Source of the DNA: Bacteroidota bacterium
GTDB lineage: Bacteria > Bacteroidota > Ignavibacteria > Kryptoniales > JAKASW01
Reading direction: 5' to 3'
NCBI GenBank assembly: GCA_021825585.1
Contig: JAKAGT010000016.1
Coordinates: 33,617 to 97,616 of the forward strand
Length of the DNA stretch: 64,000 nt
Shown here: positions 38,057-54,096 of the stretch, in pieces
Numbering within the stretch: the stretch's first letter is position 1
Layout of the letters: each line of letters begins with the position of its first letter
Notes under the pieces: generated by a model
What the model was told of the DNA's origin: nothing
Databases searched by the model: none
Seen by the model: the letters and a program-made list of their open reading frames with translations, nothing else
Position numbers and translations under genes: made by a program

Positions 38057-41000
38057 ATGTCCTGTGCGAAGCGTCTCCTATCCATTTCAATCCTTATCGC
38101 CGCATCATGTGAAATTTTATTGCCTGCCCGTTCCTTCGGGCAGGTAAATTCATCATTAGAGTTTCAAGCATCCGATTCAGTTGTCGTCCGCATCTTCAGC
38201 GCGGATACACTCGTACATCTCCCCGACGAATTCGTAGTCCAGAACTCCGACCGGGTGGTTTGCGATTCCGTGGAATTGAAGCGGGGCCCGGACTACAGGA
38301 TCAACTACACTGCGGGCACGCTGAGGTTCGAACCAGGTGGGCCATTCTTCCGGAACCGCAGAGACTCGGTTTATGTCGTAAGTCTCTATTATGCCAGTTT
38401 CCCGTTTACGATGCCGACCGAATTTACCAATCACATAGTAATCGCGAAATATGATACTTCGTTCAAGAAGAAGGTAATGATGATCGAGCAGAGTGCTCCG
38501 ATCACGCCTGCAGAACTCTTCGGCAGCAACATCCAGAAAAGCGGGAGCATCGTGCGCGGTTTCACCATCGGATCCAACCAGGACCTGACACTCAACTCCG
38601 GTTTCCGGATGCAGCTTTCGGGACAGCTGACGAAGGACGTCCAGGTGACCGCGGCGCTGACGGACGAGTCGAGCCCGATCCAGCCCGAAGGAAATACGAG
38701 AACGCTCCAGGAGTTCGACAAGGTGTTCGTCACCATAAAATCCCCGCATATCATCGGCACACTCGGCGATTTCGACCTGACCGAAACCGGGACGGAATTC
38801 GGAGTCATAAACCGCAGGCTTCAGGGTGGAATGGGAACGGCGAACTATGGTCAGACATCCGTTATGATCAGCGGCGCCGTGAGCAGGGGGAAATTCCGAA
38901 CCCAGCAGATTGCGCCGATAGACGGCAGCCAGGGGCCTTACCAGCTTGTCGGGGACGATGGAAGTCCTAACATAATTGTGGTTGCGGGCACCGAGCATGT
39001 TTACCTCGACGGCGTTAAGATGGTTCGCGGCGAAACGAACGACTATGTTATAGACTATTCGAATGCTCAGATCACCTTCACTCCCAAACACCTCATTACT
39101 AACCTGAGCCGGATCTTCGTGGATTTCGAATATTCCGACGGGCAATTCCAGCGGACGTTTGCCGGGGGCGCGGCGAAGACGAAGGTGGCGAACAATAAGA
39201 TTGAGGTGGGTGTCTCTTACTTCCAGACGGGCGACGATCCTAACAGCTCACTCGGCGTGACGCTTGCGGATTCGGACAAGGCTCTCCTTGCAAAGGCCGG
39301 CAATAACAGGCTCGCTGCTTCGAGGAGCGGTGTGACCTACGTCGGACGCGACTCAATCACCGGGATCGGTAAGGGACAGTACCGTCTCGATTCGCTGATT
39401 GTCAACGGCAAGCCGTACTACATTTATAGGTTCGTACAGCCGACCGACACGAGTAACCTTGTAAATGCCGTCTACAACGTCGCCTTCTCAGAGGTAGGCA
39501 GCGGGGAGGGTGACTACCAGTCGGTCGGATTCGGTCAGTATAACTTTGTCGGTATTAATCAGGGATCCTACGCGCCGATCGTTGTCCTCCCGATGCCGCA
39601 GTTCCACCAGCTCGCGGATGTAAATACGAAATACCGGTTCAGCCGGGACGGTTCGGCGACACTCGAGTATGCAGCAAGCAGTTTCAACGCCAATACCCTC
39701 TCCTCGCTTCCCGGTGTCTCATCCAGCGGATACGCGGCCAAGTTCGGATTTGACTACTCTCCCAAGAACCTGAAGATCGGCGACATGGATGTCGGGGCTT
39801 TGAAGTTTGCGGAGATGACGAGGTACGAGAATGCCAATTTCGATCCGATGGACAGGGTCAACGACGTCGAGTTCAACAGGGAATGGGGAATAGACACACT
39901 TGTTGCCGCAGATGAGCTCCTGAACCAGGCACACCTGGATTTTACGCCGGCAATCAAGGAGGCCCGCCTGACGATAGGCGGAGATGTAGGGAGAATCACA
40001 CGAGGCTCCGGCTTCAGCTCCGGAAGATACTCCGGTGCAATTTCCTTCGGGGGAAATCCCGGAGCGAAAGGCGAGCCTGGCTGGATACCTTCCATCAATT
40101 ATCAGGCGACGCTCGTGGACAGCAGGGACAACGAGTTCTCAAATGCCGGGAGCTGGTTCAGGCAGAACGGCACGATCCAGTTTGCGGTATGGAAACTAAC
40201 CCCGGGGTTTCGATTCGAATCGGAAGACCGGCGTCTGGCTACGACCGGTACAGACTCCCTTTGGGCGAACTCGTATCGCTACCTCGAATACGGGCCGACA
40301 CTGGCCGTCGCGCAATTTTATAACGTCGACATCTCGGCACAGGTTTATGTGAGAAATGAGAGCGGCATCATCAACGGAGAACTCGTTCCATCATCCAATT
40401 CACTTACCGAACAGCTCACGATGCGGCTGAACCAGATCAGCAGCTTCTCTTCCAACCTGACATTAACGTACCGGAAGAAATCATACAGCGACAGTTTCAA
40501 GTCGCTCGGAAATTCGGACAATGAAGCGTTTCTGTCGAAGTGGGACGCCAACTACGCTCCGCTGAATCGCGGTCTCCAGGCAAACGTGTTTTATCAGGTC
40601 AATACCGAGCGTGCTGCAAGGCTCGAACAAATTTTCTGGAAGGTGCAGCCGGGCCAGGGTCAATACATCTGGATCGACGGAAATCATAACGGCCAGGTCG
40701 ACATTACGAATCCGCTCGATTTCCAGCAGGTCAACTTCAACGGCGACTACATTTTGCTGACAAGGCCGACCACGACGCTCTATCCGGTAATCGACCTGAA
40801 GACGAATTTCAGGATTGCCGTCACCCCGGAGAAGTTCATGGAGAAGAGCGGCGGGATAGTCAATGCAGTTCTGCGCTCCCTTTCATCGGTCACCTTCTGG
40901 CAAATCGCAGAGAATAACCAGACGACCAACGTCAGCAACATATATCTCCTTCATCTTTCGAAGTTTCTCAACGACAGCCTGACTATCAGCGGCAACCAGG

Positions 41001-41635
41001 TGCTCCAGCAGGATTTTTACGTCCTGCAGAACAACCGCGACTTTTCTCTCCGCCTGAGATTCCTGCAGAACAAGTCGCTGAACCAGTATTCGATAGCAAC
41101 GGAGCGCGGTTATACGCGCGAGCAGAGCATGAGGCTCAGGGCCAAGCTGTCCGATTTATTCTATGAGGAACTCGATCTGTCTTTGAACGACAACGATGTG
41201 TTCACCACATACACCGACCGTGCACACCAGATCAGCGGAAACAGTATCGCCTCGGAGCTCTCTTACCGTCCCAACATGAACGTGGAGTCTTCGTTCAAGA
41301 TAGAGATTTCGAAAGCGGTGGATGCTTCCCGGGCCGGCCTTACAAATTCCATGAATACGGAAGTGCTGAGTGTCGCTTATTCGATTCTGACGAGAGGCCG
41401 CGTCACGCTTCAGCTTGAACGGGACGAGATCTTGATTTCGAACGAGGAACCGAATGTCTATTTGCCGTTTGAATTGACACAGGGTTTTCTGCCCGGTCAG
41501 ACATACATTTGGCAGCTGGGTTTCGATTACAGGATAAACTCTTTCATACAGGCTAACGCAAGTTACAACGGGAGAAGCCAGGCAGGTGGGCCGCCAATCA
41601 ATACGATGACTGCGGAAGTAAGGGCATTCTTCTAG
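38057..41635 (+). CDS. large predicted outer-membrane beta-barrel protein, unknown function (possibly distantly SprA-like)
   Basis: 1192 aa with a signal peptide (LLSISILIAASCEILLPARSFGQ), alternating beta-strand-like composition rich in Y/G/N/S, and a C-terminal ...AEVRAFF typical of OMP termini. Repeated DY.I.Y..G.I.F motifs. No family was assigned with confidence. Confidence 0.8.
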   Translation: MSCAKRLLSISILIAASCEILLPARSFGQVNSSLEFQASDSVVVRIFSADTLVHLPDEFVVQNSDRVVCDSVELKRGPDYRINYTAGTLRFEPGGPFFRNRRDSVYVVSLYYASFPFTMPTEFTNHIVIAKYDTSFKKKVMMIEQSAPITPAELFGSNIQKSGSIVRGFTIGSNQDLTLNSGFRMQLSGQLTKDVQVTAALTDESSPIQPEGNTRTLQEFDKVFVTIKSPHIIGTLGDFDLTETGTEFGVINRRLQGGMGTANYGQTSVMISGAVSRGKFRTQQIAPIDGSQGPYQLVGDDGSPNIIVVAGTEHVYLDGVKMVRGETNDYVIDYSNAQITFTPKHLITNLSRIFVDFEYSDGQFQRTFAGGAAKTKVANNKIEVGVSYFQTGDDPNSSLGVTLADSDKALLAKAGNNRLAASRSGVTYVGRDSITGIGKGQYRLDSLIVNGKPYYIYRFVQPTDTSNLVNAVYNVAFSEVGSGEGDYQSVGFGQYNFVGINQGSYAPIVVLPMPQFHQLADVNTKYRFSRDGSATLEYAASSFNANTLSSLPGVSSSGYAAKFGFDYSPKNLKIGDMDVGALKFAEMTRYENANFDPMDRVNDVEFNREWGIDTLVAADELLNQAHLDFTPAIKEARLTIGGDVGRITRGSGFSSGRYSGAISFGGNPGAKGEPGWIPSINYQATLVDSRDNEFSNAGSWFRQNGTIQFAVWKLTPGFRFESEDRRLATTGTDSLWANSYRYLEYGPTLAVAQFYNVDISAQVYVRNESGIINGELVPSSNSLTEQLTMRLNQISSFSSNLTLTYRKKSYSDSFKSLGNSDNEAFLSKWDANYAPLNRGLQANVFYQVNTERAARLEQIFWKVQPGQGQYIWIDGNHNGQVDITNPLDFQQVNFNGDYILLTRPTTTLYPVIDLKTNFRIAVTPEKFMEKSGGIVNAVLRSLSSVTFWQIAENNQTTNVSNIYLLHLSKFLNDSLTISGNQVLQQDFYVLQNNRDFSLRLRFLQNKSLNQYSIATERGYTREQSMRLRAKLSDLFYEELDLSLNDNDVFTTYTDRAHQISGNSIASELSYRPNMNVESSFKIEISKAVDASRAGLTNSMNTEVLSVAYSILTRGRVTLQLERDEILISNEEPNVYLPFELTQGFLPGQTYIWQLGFDYRINSFIQANASYNGRSQAGGPPINTMTAEVRAFF

Positions 41636-43216: not shown

Positions 43217-44500
43217 TCAGGTCGGGTTCTGCGGGAGCGCTTTCAATGCCCAGTGGATCTTCGCCAACAGTTCCTCGGCCAGGTACGGCTTTGGCATGAA
43301 GTCTATCGCCCCGACCTCATAGGCCTGGGCCTTCACTTCCGGCTGAACGTAACCGCTGGCGGAAATTACCCTCACACGCGGATTTAGAATCATGAGCTTC
43401 GCAAGAACTTCACTCCCGCTCATTTTGGGAAGTCCCATGTCGAGGAGCACGAGGTCGATTCTGCTCAGATGTTCCATGTAGATGCGAAGGCCCTCTGACC
43501 CATCCGATGCCAGCAAGACTTTGTACCCGCTTTCCTCGAGAATTGTTTTCAGAAAATCCCTTAGAGGCTCTTCGTCCTCAATGGCAAGAATCACTTCGCC
43601 GGCGCCTCCTGGTGCCTCGGCTGTTTTATCTTCTTCCGACAACACCCCTGTTGTCTGAGGAAGGACCGGGAAATAAAGGGAAAATGCTGTACCCGTACCG
43701 ACTCTGCTTTCAACGCCCACGAATCCATTGTGGGCTTTCATAATCCAATCGACGACCGACAGCCCAAGGCCGGTGCCGTGCCCGTCCCTCTTTGTCGTGA
43801 AGAACGGCTCAAAAATATGCCCCAGCGCCTCCTTCTTTATTCCTGAACCTGAATCCGACACTTCAATTTGTACGTATCGGTCCGCTTCCGCTCCCCGAAA
43901 ACGAGCGTCGATGACCCCCCGTCCGACGCACTTAGCGGTGATTTCGATTGTTCCCGCGTCCGGCATTGCATCGCGGGCGTTCAAGCAAAGATTGAGCAGG
44001 GCTTGGTGAATCCGATTCGAGTCAGCCCGGATTACAGGGATGTCGGAATCGATCTGAATGCTGAAGCGGATCTTCTCGGGAAAGATCTCCTTCAGCAGCC
44101 CCGTGAGTTCTTCAATTACCTCGCCTATTTTGACACGCTCCGTTACGACCTCGACTTTCCGCGTGAACGTGAGAAGTTGCCTGGCAGTCTGAGCCCCGCG
44201 GTCAGTTGCCTTCTTCACGGCGTCGAAGCTCTTTGCAAACCGCTCCGGGTCTTCCCTCCACCTTTCCATGAGTGAGACGTGCCCGGAGATAACGTTCAGT
44301 ATGTTGTTGAAGTCGTGGGCGATTCCACCGACGAGCGTGCCCAGCGTCTCCAGCCTTTGCGACTGAAGGACATGGTCTTCCCAGCGTCGCGGACCTGTTT
44401 CATTTGTCGCGAGTCTCCCTTTTGAGAGGGCAAGGTCCGGGCGATCGAACTTCCCGATCTGATTTTCTTCCATGAATGTCTTCTTTCCTTTTCGGCACAT
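43217..44500 (-). CDS. hybrid sensor histidine kinase/response regulator lacking a recognisable sensor domain
   Basis: 427 aa with HisKA (GGIAHDFNNIL), HATPase_c (GTGLGLS) and a C-terminal REC (LLDMGLPKMSG). Only about 60 aa precede the H-box, and an in-frame stop lies 21 nt upstream of the first ATG. Confidence 0.85.
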   Translation of the reverse strand: MCRKGKKTFMEENQIGKFDRPDLALSKGRLATNETGPRRWEDHVLQSQRLETLGTLVGGIAHDFNNILNVISGHVSLMERWREDPERFAKSFDAVKKATDRGAQTARQLLTFTRKVEVVTERVKIGEVIEELTGLLKEIFPEKIRFSIQIDSDIPVIRADSNRIHQALLNLCLNARDAMPDAGTIEITAKCVGRGVIDARFRGAEADRYVQIEVSDSGSGIKKEALGHIFEPFFTTKRDGHGTGLGLSVVDWIMKAHNGFVGVESRVGTGTAFSLYFPVLPQTTGVLSEEDKTAEAPGGAGEVILAIEDEEPLRDFLKTILEESGYKVLLASDGSEGLRIYMEHLSRIDLVLLDMGLPKMSGSEVLAKLMILNPRVRVISASGYVQPEVKAQAYEVGAIDFMPKPYLAEELLAKIHWALKALPQNPT

Positions 44501-44990
44501 ACATCCTGCCTTCTGCGTTATTCAATCGCTTCCTATCACCGACAGGCTCCATCAGTCCTTGCGGGTACTTAACGCCGCAGGCGACCTGGATGCCTTTGTG
44601 TCCTCTTGTCCATATCCGATACCGACACTGACGGCAAAGCAGCCTTCGTCGTGATCGCACTCAAAGAGCAGTACTTCAATGACCTTATCATGACTTCGGC
44701 GGGATCCGAAGCCGCGAATCCGACGATGACTCAGCCCTCGTGCTGACGATGAAGCTATGGAGCTGATATTGAAATGTAGGTGCCACAAAAACCGGCCCCG
44801 CTCTGCCAGAGCTGTCCCGGCCGCCGGATCAAGCCGGCGTACGAGAAAAACCAGCCTCGTCAAAATGCAAACTCCTCTTTCCCGGAACGTTGAGTGTGAC
44901 TGCACTCGCCTGGGCAGGCTCTGGCTCGCGTTCTTGTAAACCAACAAGTTTGAACTCGCAACCGATATTACAGATTGCTCGTTCGGTGAT

Positions 44991-45098
44991 TCAGTCTGGT
45001 ACGCAAAGCAATGCGTTGCAGCCGAGGCAGTTTGTTCCTGGTTGCTGCTCGGTTTCGGGTTGCTGTACCTGTACCTTAGGGGCTACTACTACCTTCAT
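44991..45098 (-). CDS. candidate RiPP precursor peptide (35 aa, 3 Cys), unannotated sORF
   Basis: ATG 45098 is preceded by AAAGGAGGTG with a 6-nt spacer, 74 nt downstream of the rSAM/SPASM stop on the same strand. Translation: MKVVVAPKVQVQQPETEQQPGTNCLGCNALLCVPD, stop TGA 44993..44991. It is below the ORF-track length cut-off. Confidence 0.5.
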   Translation of the reverse strand: MKVVVAPKVQVQQPETEQQPGTNCLGCNALLCVPD

Positions 45099-45172
45099 CT
45101 GGTTCACCTCCTTTCCTTTTCTTTTATGTTTAGCATCCAATTAGTATCTCAAAATTGCCTTAAGGAGAGAGT

Positions 45173-46504
45173 CTAGTTTGTCCCCTCTTGTTGGGCGTTT
45201 TCTACGAACATCTTGATATCCTCTTTGTAAGGAGGGCAGACGGGATGGTTGGGAGTTCCATTTTCCCTCAATCTTAAAACTTCATTTTTGGGACAATGAG
45301 CGGAATTACATATCGGCAATACGGCACAACGGCGGCACTGTGGATACTTTTCGATGCTCGATTCGACCCAGAGGCTGAAGTTCTTTACGTCGAGATGGAT
45401 TGTCCCTTCAGCAGTAAGATGGCCCACCAGGTTTTCCGGCATCTCAAAAGCCGATGTGCACTTGTAAATCGAACCGTCTGGCCCTATGACGAGCGAATGT
45501 GGGTCTGCGGCGTAGCACATTCCCAGGGCAGGGTTCAAAAAGAGGTCGCTGTCATAAAGGTACAACCCGACTTCGCCGCATATGTCTACTATTTGCTTTC
45601 TAAGACTTCTGGTCTCGAAATTGGTAAGCAAATCAAACTGGCTCTTTCCCCACGTGGGTCTCACATAAAATCGCGCCCTCTTGTCGTCGCCGACGATATC
45701 CTTGACGATGCGGGCAAACTCCGGAACGGTCTTAAGGTTATCCCTGTCGACATTCATCCTCACGACGTACATGACTTCCGGATGGTCGGATTTTGCGATG
45801 TATCGCAGGTTGGAGATAACCTGGTCGAATGTCGGTCCCCCGGATTCGAGGATCCGGCGCTGATTGTGAAATTCTCTCGGACCGTCAATTGTAATCTGGT
45901 AGCGGAGTAATCGCCAATCCTTGACTGCCTCTTCGAACACCTCCGGCGTCAGGAGATAGCCGTTTGTTGTAATCGTCGCATTAAATGCGGCGTTATATTT
46001 GTCTGCCTCTCTGACTGCATGTTTTGAGATGTTTCTGATAACGTCAATCCCGAGAAGCGGTTCACCCCCGAACCATTCGATGGAAAATCCATTTACCCGT
46101 CCCATATTATTGGAGATGTAATCCTTCAATGCCTTCTGGATTTCCTCACTCATCTTCGGCTTCTGAAAGCTCTCGTAGCAGTACACGCACCGGAAATTAC
46201 ACTCTTCCGTCGGCATCACTATCAGGCTTACTCTGTCGGTGCTCTTCTGCCTCGCGTTGAACGAAGCGATGTAGTCGGGAATCTCGTTTGTATCTTCAGG
46301 GATTATGAACATTGCGTCTTTCAGTACCGGGAACCACTCATGATCGCTGAGTTGGAATGTCTCATGCCTCCAGGCCTCCTCAAATCCCGGAAATAAAGGA
46401 TCCGTGTTGGACAGCTCGACAATAGCCCCGGTCCTTGCGTTGAAGAGACGTGCGCCGTCTTCGGTCTTTACCGTTACATTGTAACGGCTCTTCTTATAGT
46501 TCAT
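45173..46504 (-). CDS. radical SAM/SPASM domain peptide-maturase-like enzyme
   Basis: CNFRCVYC (Cx3Cx2C) about 95 aa from the N-terminus. C-terminal SPASM pattern: CYAADPHSLVIGPDGSIYKC ... CRRCAVLPICNSAHC ... HPVC. The likely start is ATG 46504 (GGAGAG 5 nt upstream); the ORF track uses GTG 46519. Confidence 0.9.
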   Translation of the reverse strand: MNYKKSRYNVTVKTEDGARLFNARTGAIVELSNTDPLFPGFEEAWRHETFQLSDHEWFPVLKDAMFIIPEDTNEIPDYIASFNARQKSTDRVSLIVMPTEECNFRCVYCYESFQKPKMSEEIQKALKDYISNNMGRVNGFSIEWFGGEPLLGIDVIRNISKHAVREADKYNAAFNATITTNGYLLTPEVFEEAVKDWRLLRYQITIDGPREFHNQRRILESGGPTFDQVISNLRYIAKSDHPEVMYVVRMNVDRDNLKTVPEFARIVKDIVGDDKRARFYVRPTWGKSQFDLLTNFETRSLRKQIVDICGEVGLYLYDSDLFLNPALGMCYAADPHSLVIGPDGSIYKCTSAFEMPENLVGHLTAEGTIHLDVKNFSLWVESSIEKYPQCRRCAVLPICNSAHCPKNEVLRLRENGTPNHPVCPPYKEDIKMFVENAQQEGTN

Positions 46505-46537
46505 GGTCACTCTCCACACTTGTTAGTCACCTTGAAT

Positions 46538-46556
46538 AGTACTAATACCGTGCCGG
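46538..46556 (-). promoter_or_regulatory. sigma-54-like -24/-12 element upstream of the rSAM gene
   Basis: Minus strand cCGGCAC-GGTAT-TAGTac has correct GGCAC-N5 spacing but a weak -12 (TAGT versus TTGC). It lies 36 nt upstream of the ATG and downstream of an activator gene and palindromes. Confidence 0.35.
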
Positions 46557-46597
46557 GAAGGAGGCCCCGTAATTGAGTTATTTGCGGGGAATGGGTA

Positions 46598-46625
46598 TGG
46601 ATTTTCCAGAATTCTGGAAAATCCA
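46598..46625. promoter_or_regulatory. 28-bp perfect palindrome, candidate enhancer (UAS) for a sigma-54 activator
   Basis: TGGATTTTCCAGAATTCTGGAAAATCCA equals its own reverse complement. It sits about 60 bp upstream of the -24-like element. Confidence 0.5.
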
Positions 46626-46637
46626 GGCCTTTGCTTT

Positions 46638-46656
46638 CCAGATTTCCGGAATCTGG
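46638..46656. promoter_or_regulatory. second related inverted repeat
   Basis: CCAGATTTCCGGAATCTGG (CCAGA...TCTGG arms around a TTCCGGAA core) shares the TTCCAGA half-site with the 28-bp palindrome. A further TTCCAGG lies at 46658..46664. Confidence 0.4.
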
Positions 46657-46841
46657 CTTCCAGGAGCGAGTAGTTTTGCGGGGCGGGCAAGCTGCCGAAG
46701 TCAGGCTTCTAAGAACGGCCGGGTGTGATCCTTGTGGGGAGACATGAGTTATTGTTGGCGTCGGATGCGATCGGAATAAGAGATAACATGCTGCCTGAAC
46801 GGCAACACACGCTCCCAACGATTCATTCCGTACAGGAAAAC

Positions 46842-47960
46842 CTACTCATCAACCGAAGCCGGCGATTTCAGCTTGGATATTTTTCCGGCGACCAATTCGT
46901 ATACAGTACTCTTTGAAGTCCCCAGTGACTTGGCCACCGACTTGTAGTTACCGGAACAAACAGTCAATGCGGCCTCAACGAGATTCTCCTTGAAGCATCT
47001 TTCTTTTTCCCTGAGGTTGAGATTCTCACCGCGTAATATTCCGCAGTTCATGGCGTCAAACTTCCCCTCCGGCAAATGACTGACGTCCACCAGGTCTTCG
47101 TTCTCGTCGAGCACCGCTATTGTGTATTCAACGACGTTTTTCAATTCCCTTATGTTGCCTGGCCAGCTGTAGCAGGAGAATATCTCCATCACTTCCGGGG
47201 AGACCACGACTCCTTCACGGCCATTGGCATCAAGGAAATATCTGACAAGGGCGGGAATTTCATCTATCCGTTCTCGCAGCGGCGGGATGGTCAGTTCACA
47301 GGCGTGGATTCTATGGTACAAATCTACTCTGAAGGTTTTGTTCTTGACCATTTGAGCGATATCCTCGCCGGTTGCGCCCACCAGTCTGAAATTGACTTTC
47401 CTGGGTGCGACGGAGCCGACCGGATAAAACTCCTGATATTCCAGCGCTCGCAGCAATTTCTTCTGGACCGCCAGGCTCATTTCCGCCACCTCGTCGAGGA
47501 AGAGAGTACCGCCGTCTGCGATTTCAAAGAAGCCCGTCTTATCGCCGCGCGCATCTGTGAAGGCTCCCTTCACGTATCCGAAGAGCTCACTTTCCAGCAG
47601 GTTATCGGGAATCGCCGCGCAGTTTATTGCCACGAAGCTTCCCGTCGAGTTTCTCGGCGAATTCTCATGTACATACCTTGCCAGGATCTCCTTCCCACTT
47701 CCGGTTTCGCCCGTAATCAGCATTGGTAAGTCAGATTTGGAAAGCTTTCTGGCCCTGTCATAAATCCTCTTCATGGCGTCATTTCGCATCACCGGGAGAG
47801 CTAGAGCAATGATGGCGGCGTTCGACGCCAGCCAATGCGCGCCATGAGAGAATGTCGGAATCAAATGACTCGCCGCACTGCAGAGAATGCCTGACAGGAC
47901 ACTCGCCTTTAGGGCGAAAACAATTGTTATGGCTGACATATCCATGATGTTCCTTTTCAT
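46842..47960 (-). CDS. sigma-54-dependent transcriptional activator without receiver domain
   Basis: 372 aa with an AAA+ sigma-54 interaction domain (ITGETGSGKE, ESELFGYVKGAFTDA, GTLFLDEV) and a C-terminal Fis-type HTH. The N-terminal ~55 aa are hydrophobic instead of REC/GAF/PAS. The ATGA overlap with the permease stop indicates co-transcription. Confidence 0.9.
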   Translation of the reverse strand: MKRNIMDMSAITIVFALKASVLSGILCSAASHLIPTFSHGAHWLASNAAIIALALPVMRNDAMKRIYDRARKLSKSDLPMLITGETGSGKEILARYVHENSPRNSTGSFVAINCAAIPDNLLESELFGYVKGAFTDARGDKTGFFEIADGGTLFLDEVAEMSLAVQKKLLRALEYQEFYPVGSVAPRKVNFRLVGATGEDIAQMVKNKTFRVDLYHRIHACELTIPPLRERIDEIPALVRYFLDANGREGVVVSPEVMEIFSCYSWPGNIRELKNVVEYTIAVLDENEDLVDVSHLPEGKFDAMNCGILRGENLNLREKERCFKENLVEAALTVCSGNYKSVAKSLGTSKSTVYELVAGKISKLKSPASVDE

Positions 47961-50377
47961 TCATATCTAAGGGCATTCACCGGGTTTGAAACACCTGCCT
48001 TAATCGCCTGAAAGCTCAATGTGAGCATGGCGGTCAAAAAGACAATCAAACCCGAAATGATGAACACCCATACGTTAATGGTGATCTTGTATTCGAATTT
48101 CTGAAGCCACTTGTTCATGAAGAAGTATGCCGTCGGCCATGCAACGGCTCCCGCAATTGCAACGAGCTTGATCGACTCCTTGGACAACATCAGAACTATG
48201 CTTAACACCGAAGCGCCAAGAACTTTTCTAACACCTATTTCCTTTATCCGTTGTTCGCTCGTGTATAGAGTGAGCCCGAAGAGACCCAGGCAAGCCACCA
48301 GGAGTGCCACCGAAGAGAAGAGTGCAAGGAGGTGCTCGTTCTTGACCTCATTGCCATACTGACTGTCCAGGTAGCTGCCAAGGAAGCCATAATCGAAGGG
48401 CTGGCGCGGCATCAGGTTATTCCAGGTCTTCGACACGAAATCGACGGTCGACCCTATGTCCTTAGGAGCGACTCTTACAACAAGGTACTGGCATTTGTCA
48501 GGTCTCAGCCACATGACGAGAGGATCGATCTTGTTTTGCAGAGAGAAGTAATTGAAGTCTCTCACAACGCCAACCACGGAGAAAATCTGTCCGTTTCCCA
48601 ATTGAATCTTTTTCCCCACAGGACTGCTCCAGCCAAGCGTTCTTCTCATTGTCTCGTTGATAATCACGGACGATGAGTCTGATGGGAATTGCATAGAGAA
48701 ATCCCTTCCTTCGACGATCTTCATGCCCATTGTCCTGATATAGCCGTAGTCAATGTAGCTCTCCCTCACTATCAAACGGGACTGACCGTTCGTCTCAGGC
48801 ACTAACACGGTTCCTTGTGTGGAAGCGGAACCGGTCAACTCGCCAGCCGACACGGCTAGAACTTTAGGGTTTGTAAGGAGTCTTTCACTAATCAACGGGA
48901 TCTTGCTTCTGGAATCTGCATTTCGCAGCGGAATGTATACTATGTTTTTCTTGTCGAACCCTAATGGCTTGCTGTAGACATAATTCATCTGATCGACCAC
49001 GATGCTTGTCCCGGTAACGAGCCCCATGGCTATGCTGAATTGCAGCATTATCAACGCTTTCCTGAGGATTATCCCGCGCTTGCTGGACGAAAATCTTCCC
49101 CTGAGCAAATCGACCGGGCGAAACGAGGAGAGATAAAACGCGGGATAGATTCCTGCAATGAAGCCCACAACGACCGCTATCAGGGCAAGCATTAGGAGGA
49201 ACGGCCACTGATTATTGTAAGAGACGATTATCCGGTCGTCCATCATTGAGTTAAACGAGGGAAGGAGAGCCTCGACAATGGGAAGGGAAATGAGGAAGCC
49301 ACTGAAGGAAAGCAAAATAGATTCTCCGATGAACTGATAAATAAGGTGCGAGTGGAACGATCCTAGCAGTTTGCGGATTCCCACTTCTCGAGTCCTTATC
49401 CCAGAGCGGGCTGTTGTAAGATTGATGAAGTTTATACACGCAAGGACAATCACGAACAACGCTATCATGATGAAAAGCCTGACGTGCTCGATGTTCCCCT
49501 TGTCATAATTAACCTGATAAAGTATGCGGCCTGAATGAAGGTGGATGCTTATGAGAGGCTGCAAATACATCTTCAAACCGTTCCAGACGTTCTGTGGTAG
49601 ATTGGCTTTGAGAAACGCCGGGAGTTCCCTTTGAACCACGCCGGAAGACCGGCTGTCCTTCAGGAGAACATAAGTGACCACATCGTTGGTTGCCCATCCC
49701 TTGAAGAGATCCAGATGACTTTCGAGTGCACCCAGTGAAGCAATCATATGAAAATGCAAATGAGAGTTTCGCGGAAAATCCTTAACTACTCCAGTGACCT
49801 GAAATGCCTTCTGGGAAAGATCCGCGTCGATATCTATGAATTTCCCCAGAGGATCGATGTTCCCGAAGTATTTTCTCGCCGTCGACTGATCGATCACTAC
49901 ACTGTAAGGTCCATTGAACGCCGCGGAGGCGCTCCCTTCGACGAAGTGGAACGTGAAAATGTCGAAGATGCTCGAATCGGCGAAGGTCAGCCCGTCTTCG
50001 TAAAACCTCCTTTCTCCAAAGTGACACAGGACGGTTGGCCATGGAACAAATCTGGCTGCGTCCTCCACTTCCGGGAATTCTTTCTTCAAGGCCGGTGCCA
50101 GCTCAGGCATCGTGATGGCCACCTGCTGTACGCGAGCGCCCGGCGGGTTCTGAATCTCCACGACCCGGTATATCCGATCGGCCTTCTTATTGAACGTGTC
50201 GTAGTTGAACTCGTTAAGAACAAACAGCATTATAAGCGTGAAGAGCGTGAAGCCTATTGTGAGGCCTGCAATGTTTATGAAGGAGTAAACCTTGGAGCTT
50301 GAGATACTTCTGAGAACGGTTTTAACGTAGCTCCAGAACACCCCGTGTCCCTTCCGTAATATTCTCGTTGGCCACAT
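47957..50377 (-). CDS. MacB/FtsX-type ABC transporter permease (duplicated FtsX)
   Basis: 806 aa with the typical N-terminus (...YSFINIAGLTIGF), two FtsX 4-TM modules and two large extracytoplasmic domains. The start may be GTG 50341 rather than ATG 50377. Confidence 0.9.
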   Translation of the reverse strand: MWPTRILRKGHGVFWSYVKTVLRSISSSKVYSFINIAGLTIGFTLFTLIMLFVLNEFNYDTFNKKADRIYRVVEIQNPPGARVQQVAITMPELAPALKKEFPEVEDAARFVPWPTVLCHFGERRFYEDGLTFADSSIFDIFTFHFVEGSASAAFNGPYSVVIDQSTARKYFGNIDPLGKFIDIDADLSQKAFQVTGVVKDFPRNSHLHFHMIASLGALESHLDLFKGWATNDVVTYVLLKDSRSSGVVQRELPAFLKANLPQNVWNGLKMYLQPLISIHLHSGRILYQVNYDKGNIEHVRLFIMIALFVIVLACINFINLTTARSGIRTREVGIRKLLGSFHSHLIYQFIGESILLSFSGFLISLPIVEALLPSFNSMMDDRIIVSYNNQWPFLLMLALIAVVVGFIAGIYPAFYLSSFRPVDLLRGRFSSSKRGIILRKALIMLQFSIAMGLVTGTSIVVDQMNYVYSKPLGFDKKNIVYIPLRNADSRSKIPLISERLLTNPKVLAVSAGELTGSASTQGTVLVPETNGQSRLIVRESYIDYGYIRTMGMKIVEGRDFSMQFPSDSSSVIINETMRRTLGWSSPVGKKIQLGNGQIFSVVGVVRDFNYFSLQNKIDPLVMWLRPDKCQYLVVRVAPKDIGSTVDFVSKTWNNLMPRQPFDYGFLGSYLDSQYGNEVKNEHLLALFSSVALLVACLGLFGLTLYTSEQRIKEIGVRKVLGASVLSIVLMLSKESIKLVAIAGAVAWPTAYFFMNKWLQKFEYKITINVWVFIISGLIVFLTAMLTLSFQAIKAGVSNPVNALRYE

Positions 50378-51026
50378 GACCGTCGAACAGCTGAACTATC
50401 CTGTTTGCCCAGCTCGCGTATTCGGTCGAGTGTGTGACCATAACGACGGTAGCACCGCCCTCATTTAATCGTGCAAGCAGAGTCATCACTTCATCCCCGT
50501 TTCTGGAGTCGAGATTCCCGGTAGGTTCATCCGCGAGTATCAACTTCTGTTTACCCACTATTGCTCTGGCGACGGCCGCTCGTTGCTGCTGTCCTCCCGA
50601 CAACTGCTTCGGAAAGTGATTGCGCCTCGGGGTGAGACGCATCTTCTCCATAATGTCCATCACCATTTCTTTCCGCTCGGGAGAACCAATTCCCATATAT
50701 ATAAGCGGCAGCTCAATATTCTCGTAGACCGTCAATTCGTTTATCAGGTTGAAATTCTGAAACACGAAGCCGATGTATTTTCTTCGGAGCGCGGTACGCT
50801 GTTTCTCTGAGAACCTGGACACCTCCTGTCCGAGGAAGTAATGTTCCCCCTCAGTAGGGCTATCGAGAAGGCCAAGTATTGTAAGCAAAGTTGTCTTGCC
50901 GGATCCGGACGGCCCCATAATTGCAACAAACTCACCGGGATCGATACGCAAGTTCGCATTGGCGACTGCAACTGTCTCGACCTGATCGGTCCTGTAAACT
51001 TTCTTGAGATTACTGATTCGAATCAT
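50322..51026 (-). CDS. ABC transporter ATP-binding protein (MacB/LolD-like)
   Basis: 234 aa with Walker A GPSGSGKTT, signature LSGGQQQR and Walker B LILADEPTGNLD. Confidence 0.9.
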   Translation of the reverse strand: MIRISNLKKVYRTDQVETVAVANANLRIDPGEFVAIMGPSGSGKTTLLTILGLLDSPTEGEHYFLGQEVSRFSEKQRTALRRKYIGFVFQNFNLINELTVYENIELPLIYMGIGSPERKEMVMDIMEKMRLTPRRNHFPKQLSGGQQQRAAVARAIVGKQKLILADEPTGNLDSRNGDEVMTLLARLNEGGATVVMVTHSTEYASWANRIVQLFDGHVANENITEGTRGVLELR

Positions 51027-51064: not shown

Positions 51065-51082
51065 CGTCAAAAATTGTGCCTT
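51065..51082 (-). promoter_or_regulatory. sigma-54-like -24/-12 element upstream of the ABC operon
   Basis: Minus strand aAGGCAC-AATTT-TTGAcg has correct spacing and a -12 of TTGA versus TTGC. It lies 40 nt upstream of the ATPase ATG, in the divergent region shared with the NtrC-type regulator gene. Confidence 0.4.
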
Positions 51083-51276
51083 ATTTTATGACACCAGTAG
51101 CATCCAGATACACGCACGCCGACTTAAAGTGTTCGCTTTCGATACACCGAGTGTGCGGATATGATACAGAGTCCGACTTAATCTGTCAGGAAAAAAGGAA
51201 ATGCAGCGGCGCGACCTTACTATGCCATGAGACGATCGGGGTTCGCATTATCAAGAAGGGATTATTAGATTTGTCC

Positions 51277-52659
51277 ATGACTTCAAATCCTGAAAAACAC
51301 GGCAGCGCTCTGATCGTCGATGACGATGCTGCTATCCTCACAGCGTTTAGTCTCCTTCTCAAGCCGCACCTTAGGCTGGTGGAAACCGAAAGAGATCCTC
51401 ATAATATAGAAAAACGGCTCAAAACAATATCACACGATGTAATTTTCCTGGATATGAACTTCGCCAAGGGATCGACGACGGGCGAAGAAGGATTCCTATG
51501 GCTCAACAGGATTCTCAAAATTGATCCCACGGCCATCGTGATTTTGATCACCGCCTACGGCGACATAGAAACAGCGGTGAGGGCCATCAAGGAAGGTGCG
51601 ACGGACTTCGTCGTGAAGCCGTGGCAAAACGAAAAGATCCTGGCGACTCTCTCGTCGGCCTTGAAGTTGAGGGAGTCTCAGGTAGAACTCGCGGCATCGC
51701 GTAATCGCGAGAAAGTACTCAGTGCCGATCTCGATCAGCCGTTCCATGAAATAATCGGCAAGTCAACAGCAATGCTTCAAATATTTGAAACGATACGGAA
51801 AGTAGCGGGAACGGAAGCGAATATTCTGATTCTGGGTGAAAACGGTACGGGTAAGGAGCTGGTGGCGCGTGCGATACATCGTTTCTCAATGAGAGCCGAA
51901 AGTTCTTTTATTGCCGTCGACATGGGGGCAATAAGCGAGACTTTGTTTGAAAGCGAACTCTTCGGCCATGAAAAGGGGGCCTTCACCGGCGCCTCAAATG
52001 ATCGAATGGGGAGATTTGAAATCGCATCCAGGGGTACGCTTTTCCTCGATGAGATAGGAAATCTCCCGTTCTCACTTCAGGCCAAATTGCTCGCCGTAGT
52101 CGAGAGACGCGAGATCACGAGGGTCGGTTCCGATAGGCCGCGTCCGATCGATATTAGACTCATAACAGCCACGAACATGCCGATACATGAAATGGTGGCG
52201 CAGAAGAAGTTCAGAGAGGATTTATTATACAGGATAAACACCGTCGAGATAAATCTTCCTCCTCTGAGTCATCGGGTGGAAGATATCCCGCTGCTGGTCG
52301 AACATTTCGTACAACTTTACGGCAGGAAGTACCAGAAGCCGGGCATCCGTGTGTCTCCAGAAAGTATGAGGGTCTTGAGCGAATACCAGTGGCCCGGCAA
52401 TGTCAGGGAGCTGCAGCACGTCATAGAACGAGCGGTGATATTGAGCGAATCCGACTCCCTGCATCCCGAGGAGATGATTCTCAAACCGGCTGCAGCTGCG
52501 CACCCGGATAATGCGGCTGATCATTCGCTCGACGAAATCGAGAAGAAACACGTTGAGATGATGATCAAGAAACACGATGGAAACGTTACCGAAGCGGCAA
52601 AGGAACTCGGCCTGACACGGACTGCCCTCTACAGGAGAATCAAGAAATACGGAATATGA
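51277..52659 (+). CDS. NtrC-family sigma-54-dependent response regulator
   Basis: REC (LIVDDDAAIL...FLDMNF), AAA+ (GENGTGKE, ESELFGHEKGAFTGA) and Fis HTH domains. The conserved protein begins at MTSNPEKHGSALIVDDD. The ORF-track start 51076 would overlap the divergent promoter region. Confidence 0.9.
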   Translation: MTSNPEKHGSALIVDDDAAILTAFSLLLKPHLRLVETERDPHNIEKRLKTISHDVIFLDMNFAKGSTTGEEGFLWLNRILKIDPTAIVILITAYGDIETAVRAIKEGATDFVVKPWQNEKILATLSSALKLRESQVELAASRNREKVLSADLDQPFHEIIGKSTAMLQIFETIRKVAGTEANILILGENGTGKELVARAIHRFSMRAESSFIAVDMGAISETLFESELFGHEKGAFTGASNDRMGRFEIASRGTLFLDEIGNLPFSLQAKLLAVVERREITRVGSDRPRPIDIRLITATNMPIHEMVAQKKFREDLLYRINTVEINLPPLSHRVEDIPLLVEHFVQLYGRKYQKPGIRVSPESMRVLSEYQWPGNVRELQHVIERAVILSESDSLHPEEMILKPAAAAHPDNAADHSLDEIEKKHVEMMIKKHDGNVTEAAKELGLTRTALYRRIKKYGI

Positions 52660-52740
52660 ACGAATCGCCGCACGCCGCAGAACGCCCGTCGTTAAGATCA
52701 TCTTCCTATCTGTGCTAATGCATAACGGAAGAACGTCGCT

Positions 52741-54096
52741 ATGACTCTTGACCGCTTCCGCCTGGCCAGTGTTTCGCGTACGTTATTGTTAACTGCGACC
52801 GTATCGCTGCTCGCCTACCTTCTCTTTCGCACCGTCCTGTACGAGATGGCTGCGCTCGTTGGCTTAATTGCGTTGTACCAGCTGTTCTCCTTCATTCGCT
52901 GGATAGAGAGAAAAAATATCAGGTTGGCCAGATTCCTGGAAGCCATTGAGGCCGCCGATTTCACGCAGACTTTCAGCAATAACACAAGGAGCAAAGCCTT
53001 CGATGAACTGAACAGAAGCCTGAACAGGATCGCCCAGAGATTCGAGGAGATGAGAGTCGAAACAGAGGATCAGTTCCAATATCTGCAGTTCGTCGTCGAA
53101 CAGCTAACCGTCGGTCTGATCGCCTTCCGTCAGGACGGGAAGATTGATATGATAAACCGTGCCGCCAAACGCTTACTCGGCGTGCCGCAGCTCAAGAACG
53201 TCAAAGACCTCAGGCCCCTCAGCAACGACTTGTACGAGGTACTCATCAGCGCCAACCCACGTAAGAGGAACCTCGTGAGCATGGAGAGCGGTAATGTATC
53301 GGTAAGGCTTGCCATACAGATCTCCGGATTCAGGATGAGAGAGGTGAGCTACACTCTTGCATCGCTGCAGGACATGCGGGGTGAACTGGAAGAGATAGAA
53401 CTCGACGCCTGGCAGAATCTGATACGCGTATTGACGCACGAGATTGTCAACTCCATCGCTCCGATAGCATCACTGGCCTCAACCGCAAACAGACTCCTGT
53501 CCGACACGAGCTGGCAGTCGCCGGAGAAAGGAGAGGCTGCCCCGCCTGCTCTTGAGGACGTCCAGACCGCTGTGCGGACTATCGAGGCCAGGAGCGAAGG
53601 GCTGCTCCGTTTTGTCAATTCCTACAGGACCCTTACACATATTCCGAATCCGAAGTTCAGGATCTTCCCGATCTGGATGCTGTTTTCCCGGGTCGAACAA
53701 CTCGTCAGGTCGGCAGTAACCCAGAGCGGCATAACACTGACTACCAGCGTTACCCCTCAGTCGTTGGAACTGACGGCAGACCCGGACCTGCTGGAGCAAG
53801 TGCTTCTAAACCTTCTGATGAATTCAATTCAGGCTCTCGATGGCAAGACAGGCGGGCAGATTATCCTGTCGGCTCAGCTCGAGGAAAAGGGAAAGATAAG
53901 TATACGCGTTGAGGACAACGGCTTGGGGATTCCCAAAGATATTCAGGAAAAAATCTTCATTCCATTTTTTACGACAAAGGAGAGCGGCTCCGGGATCGGG
54001 CTCAGCCTCTCTCGCCAGATACTGCATTCACACCAGGCACTGATCAGCGTGTGGTCGCATCCGGACGAGAAGACGGTATTTACAATAGTCTTTTGA
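52741..54096 (+). CDS. sensor histidine kinase with two TM helices and almost no periplasmic loop
   Basis: 451 aa. TM1 and TM2 are separated by about 6 residues (RTVLYE). These are followed by a linker, a PAS-like segment, an H-box (LTHEIVNSIAPI) and HATPase_c (DNGLGIP...GSGIGLSLS). Confidence 0.85.
   Translation: MTLDRFRLASVSRTLLLTATVSLLAYLLFRTVLYEMAALVGLIALYQLFSFIRWIERKNIRLARFLEAIEAADFTQTFSNNTRSKAFDELNRSLNRIAQRFEEMRVETEDQFQYLQFVVEQLTVGLIAFRQDGKIDMINRAAKRLLGVPQLKNVKDLRPLSNDLYEVLISANPRKRNLVSMESGNVSVRLAIQISGFRMREVSYTLASLQDMRGELEEIELDAWQNLIRVLTHEIVNSIAPIASLASTANRLLSDTSWQSPEKGEAAPPALEDVQTAVRTIEARSEGLLRFVNSYRTLTHIPNPKFRIFPIWMLFSRVEQLVRSAVTQSGITLTTSVTPQSLELTADPDLLEQVLLNLLMNSIQALDGKTGGQIILSAQLEEKGKISIRVEDNGLGIPKDIQEKIFIPFFTTKESGSGIGLSLSRQILHSHQALISVWSHPDEKTVFTIVF

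Follow-up and report, generated by a model that had tools for sequence, protein, structure and literature searches.

What a long, perfect palindrome does in the gap between two bacterial genes is the question raised by the 64-kb stretch of contig JAKAGT010000016.1 analysed here (the window). The palindrome, TGGATTTTCCAGAATTCTGGAAAATCCA at 46598-46625, lies between a gene for a sigma-54 activator and a gene for a radical SAM (rSAM) peptide maturase. A preliminary description of the locus regarded it as the operator of a dedicated activator that controls the maturase and peptide genes. Our analysis suggests, at a probability of about 0.78, that two dyad-symmetric sites, one of them inside the palindrome, are enhancer sites for the adjacent 372-aa sigma-54 activator and drive the rSAM/peptide operon from a −24/−12 promoter. 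The elements concerned are as follows.

46842..47960, minus strand: gene for the sigma-54 activator, 372 aa, in which an AAA+ domain and a GAFTDA loop, but no sensor domain, were recognised
46786..46810, minus strand: weak terminator-like hairpin just past the activator stop codon, found by a consensus scan
46634..46653: predicted distal enhancer site, upstream activating sequence 2 (UAS-2), core TTCCAGATTTCCGGAA at 46636-46651, centre at about −114
46598..46625: predicted proximal enhancer site (UAS-1), core TTTTCCAGAATTCTGGAAAA at 46602-46621, dyad centre at about −82 from the predicted start
46540..46555, minus strand: predicted sigma-54-type promoter CGGCACGGTATTAGTA, GG (−24) at 46554-46553, G(−13)T(−12) at 46542-46541
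46502..46515, minus strand: Shine-Dalgarno sequence GGAG (46515-46512) and ATG (46504-46502) of the rSAM gene, both invariant in 13 sequences
45173..46504, minus strand: radical SAM/SPASM peptide maturase (Pfam Radical_SAM), 443 aa, first gene of the putatively controlled operon

The palindrome was exact on recheck, with 14-nt arms, no spacer and 100% complementarity. It is the longest spacer-less palindrome of the window, where the runner-up has arms of 7 nt. In 200 first-order Markov simulations, the longest palindrome arm was 12 nt and the mode was 8, versus 14 observed. As the simulated arms never exceeded 12 nt, a chance origin of the 28-bp palindrome is excluded, and the preliminary description was correct in calling such a length improbable by chance.

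Phylogenetic footprinting was performed with 13 upstream regions, namely those of 12 orthologous loci obtained by a genome scan (L001-L012) and that of the window, whose rSAM proteins are 65-92% identical. The 200 nt upstream of the maturase ATG aligned almost without gaps. Only four conserved islands were observed: the distal TTCC-N8-GGA(A), the proximal TTTCC-N8-GGAA, GGCA[C/T]-N4-TTnGnA, and GGAG with the ATG. The proximal TTTCC...GGAA and the GGCA, TT, G and A of the promoter were invariant in all 13 sequences, and TTCC-N8-GGA of the distal site was invariant across the aligned sequences. The information content was 1.26 bits per column for the distal site, 1.52 for the proximal site and 1.54 for the promoter, with 0.28-0.61 in the flanks; the Shine-Dalgarno/ATG island also falls within 1.26-1.54.

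The geometry was conserved as well. The distance to the ATG is fixed at 137-140 nt for the distal centre, 105-108 nt for the proximal centre and 48-51 nt for the GG, and the distance from site to promoter varies by no more than 3 nt among the loci. UAS-1 and UAS-2 of the window are 32 bp apart from centre to centre, and the same start-to-start spacing of 32 bp was found in every locus with both sites matching TTCC-N8-GG(AA). Gene order is the same in all orthologous loci where the contigs extend far enough, and the activator gene adjoins at every locus with a long enough contig and no insertion of mobile DNA. A strict pattern of the whole architecture gave 0 matches against metagenome contigs, because the one Joint Genome Institute (JGI) ortholog has AT, not TT, before the −12 G. 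The closest metagenome-assembled genomes (MAGs) are named Candidatus Kryptoniota or "Bacteroidetes bacterium", of the Fibrobacteres-Chlorobi-Bacteroidetes (FCB) group.

In one lineage (L006 1-4100 and L214 1-4103), the rSAM control region is parted from the activator gene by inserted genes for an IS110-like transposase, a PDDEXK protein and MmeI-type restriction-modification. The insertion lies upstream of the control region, whose sites and promoter are intact.

As conservation among orthologs is limited to these islands, the functional operator would be two 18-20 bp dyads, TTTCC-N8-GGAAA, at about −114 and −82, and not the 28-bp element that was proposed originally; the palindrome is real, but its 28-bp length is peculiar to the window. 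The distal core TTCCAGATTTCCGGAA differs from the UAS-1 core at 2 positions. Only 2 good matches to the dyad site were found in the window, both in the gap between the activator and rSAM genes. A second inverted repeat noted earlier, CCAGATTTCCGGAATCTGG (46638-46656), was confirmed, 8 of its 9 pairs being complementary, but its register is 3 bp off the conserved axis at 46643/46644. A further TTCCAGG copy (46658-46664) likewise exists but is conserved in no ortholog. The two dyads have the features of upstream activating sequences, which are dyad-symmetric sites about 80-150 bp upstream of a −24/−12 promoter, present at least twice in helical phase and conserved together with the promoter.

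The promoter candidate CGGCACggtatTAGTA at 46555-46540 on the minus strand shows GG-N10-GT spacing. It contains the GG-N10-G of a −24/−12 element; the canonical GC at −13/−12 (TTGCW) is replaced by TAGTA (GT) in the window. The exact spacing and imperfect −12 element reported previously were thus both seen. A scan with the canonical sigma-54 consensus at two or fewer mismatches did not recover the promoter, and the consensus alone is uninformative here. The pattern GGCAYNNNNNTT, one N longer than the element, did not match it either. At the −12 position, C was found in 9 of the 13 sequences, T in 3 including the window, and A in 1. Because of this C/T/A variation among orthologs, the imperfect −12 of the window is probably a tolerated variant of a conserved promoter. 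Scoring against a sigma-54 consensus, a check akin to the one recommended in the preliminary description, leaves the element at chance level when it is taken alone, whereas the canonical GC occurs in 9/13 aligned sequences; it is solely conservation that validates the predicted promoter of the window. The −12 cytosine appears to be dispensable in the predicted sigma-54 promoters of this clade, which matters for promoter prediction outside Proteobacteria. The transcription start is predicted near 46529. The gap between the activator and rSAM genes measures 322 bp, as previously stated, if GTG 46519 is the rSAM start, but 337 bp with the conserved ATG 46504.

We then considered the protein that would act at these sites. 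The 372-aa product contains the central AAA+ sigma-54 interaction domain of a bacterial enhancer-binding protein (bEBP), with Pfam matches to Sigma54_activat (PF00158, E = 4.8e-63) and AAA_lid_14 (E = 1.1e-16). Its AlphaFold (AF2) model, with a predicted local distance difference test (pLDDT) score of 74, matched the structures of NtrX, ZraR, NtrC1, FlrC and FleQ in Foldseek (E ~1e-25). A helix-turn-helix (HTH) is predicted at residues 339-364 (46869-46946). The C-terminal helices of the model span residues 316-334, 339-346 and 350-364, with pLDDT of ~60-80 in 10-residue blocks, and the last two form a predicted HTH whose motif is strongly conserved. GAFTDA is located at residues 132-137 (~47550-47567) in the window protein and is present in all 24 aligned first-tier orthologs; GAFTGA is kept in paralogs of 50% identity. 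About 25 activator ortholog clusters, 63-100% identical, all carry GAFTDA and none has a sensor domain. GAFTDA is among the loop variants expected to retain activity (PMC4641369).

An N-terminal regulatory (sensor/receiver) domain was not found in the window protein; no domain was recognised in residues 1-58, where pLDDT is below 50. Its domain content places the activator among the regulatory-domain-less bEBPs. The score with the NCBIfam PspF model was 230 bits, far under the 444-bit cut-off, and no NCBIfam equivalog cut-off was reached. Where bEBPs lack an N-terminal domain, a partner protein or a cascade is presumed (PMC4641369), and domain-less bEBPs in general are thought to be controlled in these ways (PMC4641369; PMC7175178). 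Residues 1-56 (47793-47960) form an N-terminal extension that is hydrophobic (Kyte-Doolittle maximum of 1.9 over 19 residues) and has conserved His residues (..SHL.P...HG.H.L..). The extension is absent in about half of the orthologs and may anchor the protein in a membrane or bind a metal.

The link between this protein and the dyads was evaluated by comparing recognition helices with half-sites. The window helix is K350-S-T-V-Y-E-L-V. Helices of the form SKS-T-V-Y-[E/D]-[L/I] pair with TTCC[A/G] in the window and in L001, L002, L004, L007, L008, L009, L011, L012, L210 and L211/212. Helices of the form SKS-A-[V/L]-Y-R-[S/A] pair with TTCCC in all four half-sites, as found for the activators P0143 (L010) and P0137 (L208/209). 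In a neighbour-joining tree of the AAA+ core without the HTH, P0137 is placed beside P0141 (YDLI, TTCCA) and P0143 beside P0140 (YDLV, TTCCA). As each switched lineage has an unswitched sister in the tree, the helix and half-site appear to have switched twice, independently. The change from Glu to Arg together with the change from A:T to C:G is chemically sensible, because Arg reads guanine. The predicted specificity-determining pair is Glu/Asp355-Leu356 for TTCCA/G, and Arg-Ala/Ser for TTCCC.

The TTCCC-type loci L006/L214 are unscorable for covariation because their activator gene is displaced by the transposase and restriction-modification block. A YRAV-type activator, P0144, was tried as the partner of this rSAM locus and rejected, as the contig ends do not overlap. 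The adjacency of the genes and the covariation of helix and half-site support a dedicated pair formed by the 372-aa protein and the dyads, as the preliminary description anticipated. The locus offers a clean example of protein-site co-evolution; understanding of sigma-54 control itself is unchanged.

We infer binding, sigma-54 dependence, the start site and a cascade from these observations, and propose the following mechanism. Dimers of the sensor-less AAA+ activator would bind both TTTCC-N8-GGAAA dyads via the C-terminal HTH, and the site-bound dimers would nucleate a hexamer. The hexamer would loop across the short A-rich spacer to RNA polymerase-sigma-54 at GG-N10-G(C/T) (46555-46540). ATP use would then open the promoter, with transcription starting from near 46529. 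As most members of the activator family have no sensory domain, output is probably set by the amount of activator made. The activator gene lies behind the genes of an ABC-exporter operon that has a sigma-54-like promoter of its own, and a two-tier cascade would result.

Several points weigh against this proposal. The window promoter has 3 mismatches to TGGCACG-N4-TTGCW, and matches of such quality number 71 versus 77 expected. The 64-kb window does not contain rpoN. Only ~48 bp separate the proximal site from the −24 element; such a distance would be short for a loop in unbent DNA, and a binding site for an architectural protein was not identified. The Pfam HTH_8 match at the activator C-terminus is weak (E = 0.0089, 16.2 bits vs the 22-bit cut-off). 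Covariation numbers are small: two switched lineages, together with the TTCCC lineage L006/L214, which has no linked activator. The 86-nt stretch with the terminator-like hairpin (46845-46760) has a folding energy of −26.9 kcal/mol (z = −1.9), and as this terminator is weak, transcription may run on from the activator operon into the rSAM gene. Finally, the cascade is suggested by motif conservation alone.

Among other explanations, the best-surviving one keeps the enhancers and changes the protein. Two bEBPs are encoded within 5 kb, and the rSAM control region of L006/L214 is intact though its activator gene is not adjacent, so the dyads might serve another sigma-54 activator, the NtrC-type regulator at 51277-52659 or one encoded elsewhere, with the 372-aa protein acting on other targets. 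We consider this unlikely. The NtrC-type gene adjoins a different repeat pair, GTGTATC-N5-CGnACAC, without TTCC-N8-GGAA; it is the recognition helix of the 372-aa protein that co-varies with the half-site; and the separation at L006/L214 is explained by the inserted transposase and MmeI-type restriction-modification block.

Somewhat less probable still is a role of the dyads as operators of a repressor or of some other non-sigma-54 factor, acting on a sigma-70-type promoter or blocking read-through. Palindromic sites of 18-20 bp are generic for dimeric HTH proteins, and the imperfect −12 element of the window would suit such a role. However, the coding strand of the gap showed no sigma-70-like promoter, and GGCA...TTnGnA is conserved at a fixed distance from both the sites and the ATG. 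The 32-bp phasing and the positions at −82/−114 are what one expects of bEBP enhancers, and the sites co-vary with the HTH of a bEBP.

A role of the palindrome at the RNA level, as a hairpin of read-through transcripts that serves as terminator, processing site or stabiliser, is improbable, even though its perfect 14-bp stem would be very stable and the terminator after the activator gene is weak. The palindrome is not followed by a U-tract (the centre on the coding strand is AT-rich and is followed by TACCCATTCC), the two copies are at fixed helical phasing, and no credible Rfam match was obtained in the region searched (44300-47000). An intrinsic-terminator scan did not list the palindrome; the sole overlapping entry was a 6-pair hairpin on the plus strand (46613-46627). 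Because the dyad centre loses complementarity in orthologs while TTCC/GGAA is invariant, protein recognition, not RNA structure, is indicated.

The views that the palindrome arose by chance or belongs to a dispersed repeat (of the repetitive extragenic palindrome or miniature inverted-repeat transposable element kind) can practically be dismissed: the 19-mer TTTCCAGAWWTCTGGAAAA occurs in at least 120 metagenome contigs, but those listed span 29-72% GC, have no flanks common with the window and are mostly chance matches; among the matches listed, the distal site and the promoter accompany it only on the rSAM contig of P0008; and the window holds only two good sites, conserved at orthologous positions. 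The recurrence check named in the preliminary description thus gave no sign of a dispersed repeat.

Sigma-54 enhancers bound by the 372-aa activator, the reading we prefer, can be compared with known systems. The NtrC sites at E. coli glnAp2 are centred at −140 and −108 (PMC5159524), and UAS sites generally lie ~100-150 bp upstream (PMC7057263). As predicted for the window, glnAp2 has two dyad activator sites 32 bp apart upstream of a −24/−12 promoter; once bound there, NtrC dimers seed a hexamer, which reaches sigma-54 polymerase through a DNA loop, as proposed for the window activator. The window sites, in contrast, are ~26 bp closer to the promoter (−114, −82) and have the motif TTTCC-N8-GGAAA; the window activator differs from NtrC in lacking a receiver domain and in having GAFTDA instead of GAFTGA. 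The layout agrees with what is generally described for bEBP enhancers and domain types (PMC7175178; PMC7057263).

Systems with an AAA+ domain plus a C-terminal HTH, no sensory domain, and sites upstream of an adjacent sigma-54 operon include PspF-pspA, HrpR/HrpS and Desulfovibrio DVU2894/DVU2956/DVU2989, and in these features they are like the window system with its predicted HTH and predicted sites. Unlike the PspF type, the window activator gene is embedded in an ABC-exporter operon, and some members of the family have the 56-aa hydrophobic N-terminal extension. No PspA- or HrpV-like partner was recognised at the window locus. The predictions of enhancer-binding protein regulons in Desulfovibrio (PMC4641369) used an alike inference, from an activator gene beside an operon with a conserved sigma-54 promoter and a palindromic site; the window differs in phylum (FCB group, Candidatus Kryptoniota-like MAGs), in motif and in its rSAM/SPASM target.

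The architecture is classical; the regulator, the motif and the peptide family are undescribed. Full-text literature searches returned no paper on sigma-54 control of radical-SAM clusters for ribosomally synthesized and post-translationally modified peptides (RiPPs) in this lineage, and none on the dyad motif. The predicted elements amount to a concrete cis-regulatory code for an uncharacterised activator family of an uncultivated phylum, consisting of TTTCC-N8-GGAAA twice, 32 bp apart, and GGCAY-N4-TTnGnA.

The genes around the control region, from the ABC ATPase through the hybrid kinase, are all on the minus strand. Those other than the activator and maturase genes are listed below.

50322..51026, minus strand: ABC ATPase, located upstream of the activator gene and co-oriented with it
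47957..50377, minus strand: MacB/ADOP-type permease, whose stop overlaps the activator start (ATGA)
44991..45098, minus strand: precursor peptide gene, 35 aa, MKVVVAPKVQVQQPETEQQPGTNCLGCNALLCVPD, with a strong GGAGG ribosome-binding site
43217..44500, minus strand: hybrid histidine kinase-receiver, downstream of the peptide gene and syntenic in orthologs

The maturase had its best NCBIfam match in TIGR04463 (202 bits vs the 525-bit cut-off). Its ortholog group is compact, at 45-94% identity, after which identity falls to 36%. The precursor peptide matched no NCBIfam family. The motif MK[VI][VI].{1,2}PKV...C-x2-[CS]-N-x3-C-x0-1-[PG]-[DE] was found in 8 of the 10 orthologous loci searched; the C-terminal NCxGCNxxxC[VW]PD is conserved in orthologs, as NCxGCNxxxCVPD in the closest relatives. 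These genes mark a compact radical-SAM RiPP cluster with a maturase, a 35-aa three-Cys precursor and an ABC exporter. The on-switch of the cluster could be rebuilt in a heterologous host with one small constitutively active bEBP, which would be useful for silent metagenome clusters.

Between the peptide and hybrid kinase genes, ~490 bp contain no clear gene. Most orthologous loci encode a protein of ~80 aa here, MYS...FCxYNDxIVGRIEFEI... (L001 7746-8096, L005 1904-, L004 7689-). The window counterpart (44552-44947) is divergent, may be degenerate and has no family match. The sequence TGGCACctacaTTTCA at 44785-44770 was considered as a third sigma-54 promoter, with one consensus mismatch, and rejected; it is unconserved in orthologs and probably due to chance. 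A terminator-like hairpin directly precedes it (both within 44770-44812, minus strand).

Upstream of the exporter genes, a second control region was found, with the following features.

51066..51080, minus strand: second sigma-54-like promoter, likewise conserved, GGCACAATTTTTGAC, located ~40 nt before the ATG of the ABC ATPase gene
51129..51169, minus strand: two conserved (G)TGTATC-N5-CGnACAC repeats, 22 bp apart, a different candidate enhancer
51277..54096, plus strand: divergent two-component pair, consisting of an activator with receiver (REC), AAA+ (GAFTGA) and HTH_8 domains (51277-52659) and an AtoS/ZraS-like histidine kinase (52741-54096)

The second promoter reads GGCAY-N4/5-TTTG, and its GGCA and TTTG are invariant in 8 sequences. 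Both the promoter and the repeats lie in the 250-bp intergenic region that separates the ABC ATPase gene from its divergent NtrC-type neighbour, and no TTCC-N8-GGAA site was found there. The start of the NtrC-type gene is probably ATG 51277, not GTG 51076 of the mechanical open reading frame (ORF). Because orthologs conserve ATG 51277 (CATGG, MTSNPEKHGSALIVDD...), ~200 nt of this ORF (51076-51279) would really be a shared control region. The (G)TGTATC repeats presumably serve the divergent NtrC-type regulator. From this arrangement, the exporter-activator operon would itself depend on sigma-54 and be run by that regulator. A two-tier cascade, in which exporter and activator are turned on before maturase and peptide, is probable on these motifs.

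Sigma-54 activator cascades are known from flagellar regulons, from FleQ to FleR and from FlrA to FlrC. The window cascade would be alike in that one sigma-54 activator drives a second, which then drives the next tier. It differs in being deduced from two conserved promoters and in its output, a RiPP maturase/peptide operon. A more far-reaching version is a self-contained, export-first circuit of a new RiPP family, in which the NtrC-type system turns on the exporter and the GAFTDA activator, which in turn activates maturase and peptide; activators bearing the hydrophobic, His-rich N-terminal extension would be tethered to the FtsX-type permease, so that the transporter gates transcription. We regard this circuit as doubtful. 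If true, it would represent a transporter-coupled sigma-54 activator, with a logic similar to flux sensing by BceAB-BceS.

More distant relatives were also inspected. A contig with an rSAM ortholog of 51% identity (L082 2246-2589) has, in front of that gene, a gene for a GAF-domain bEBP, repeats of the TGCCCA-N4-TGGGCA type and a textbook TGGCACGaggaTTGCA promoter. Because this ortholog is also preceded by a bEBP gene and a promoter, sigma-54 control seems recurrent in the maturase family. The P0020 locus (45% rSAM identity) was rejected as a sigma-54 relative, because its neighbour is of the XRE type and no sigma-54 features are present. The second-tier activator paralogs of L203 and L205 (~50% identity, GAFTGA) were likewise set aside as evidence for the sites, having different repeats downstream and no TTCC-N8-GGAA. 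These sensor-less paralogs (L203 7970-8221, L205 7973-8230) occur in AT-rich FCB-group MAGs and are followed by a gap and then by a gene for a 330-aa protein of no known family. Within the gap, a TTGCGATAA-N5-TTATCG-like dyad is conserved, alongside a TGGTAT-N5-TTGT element and a GGAAT...ATTCC palindrome.

Two further proteins were recorded. One with a type IX secretion system (T9SS) sorting domain points to an FCB-group organism. A 1192-aa ORF of the window (38057-41635, plus strand) has no Pfam match and is syntenic in the orthologous loci at 70-93% identity.

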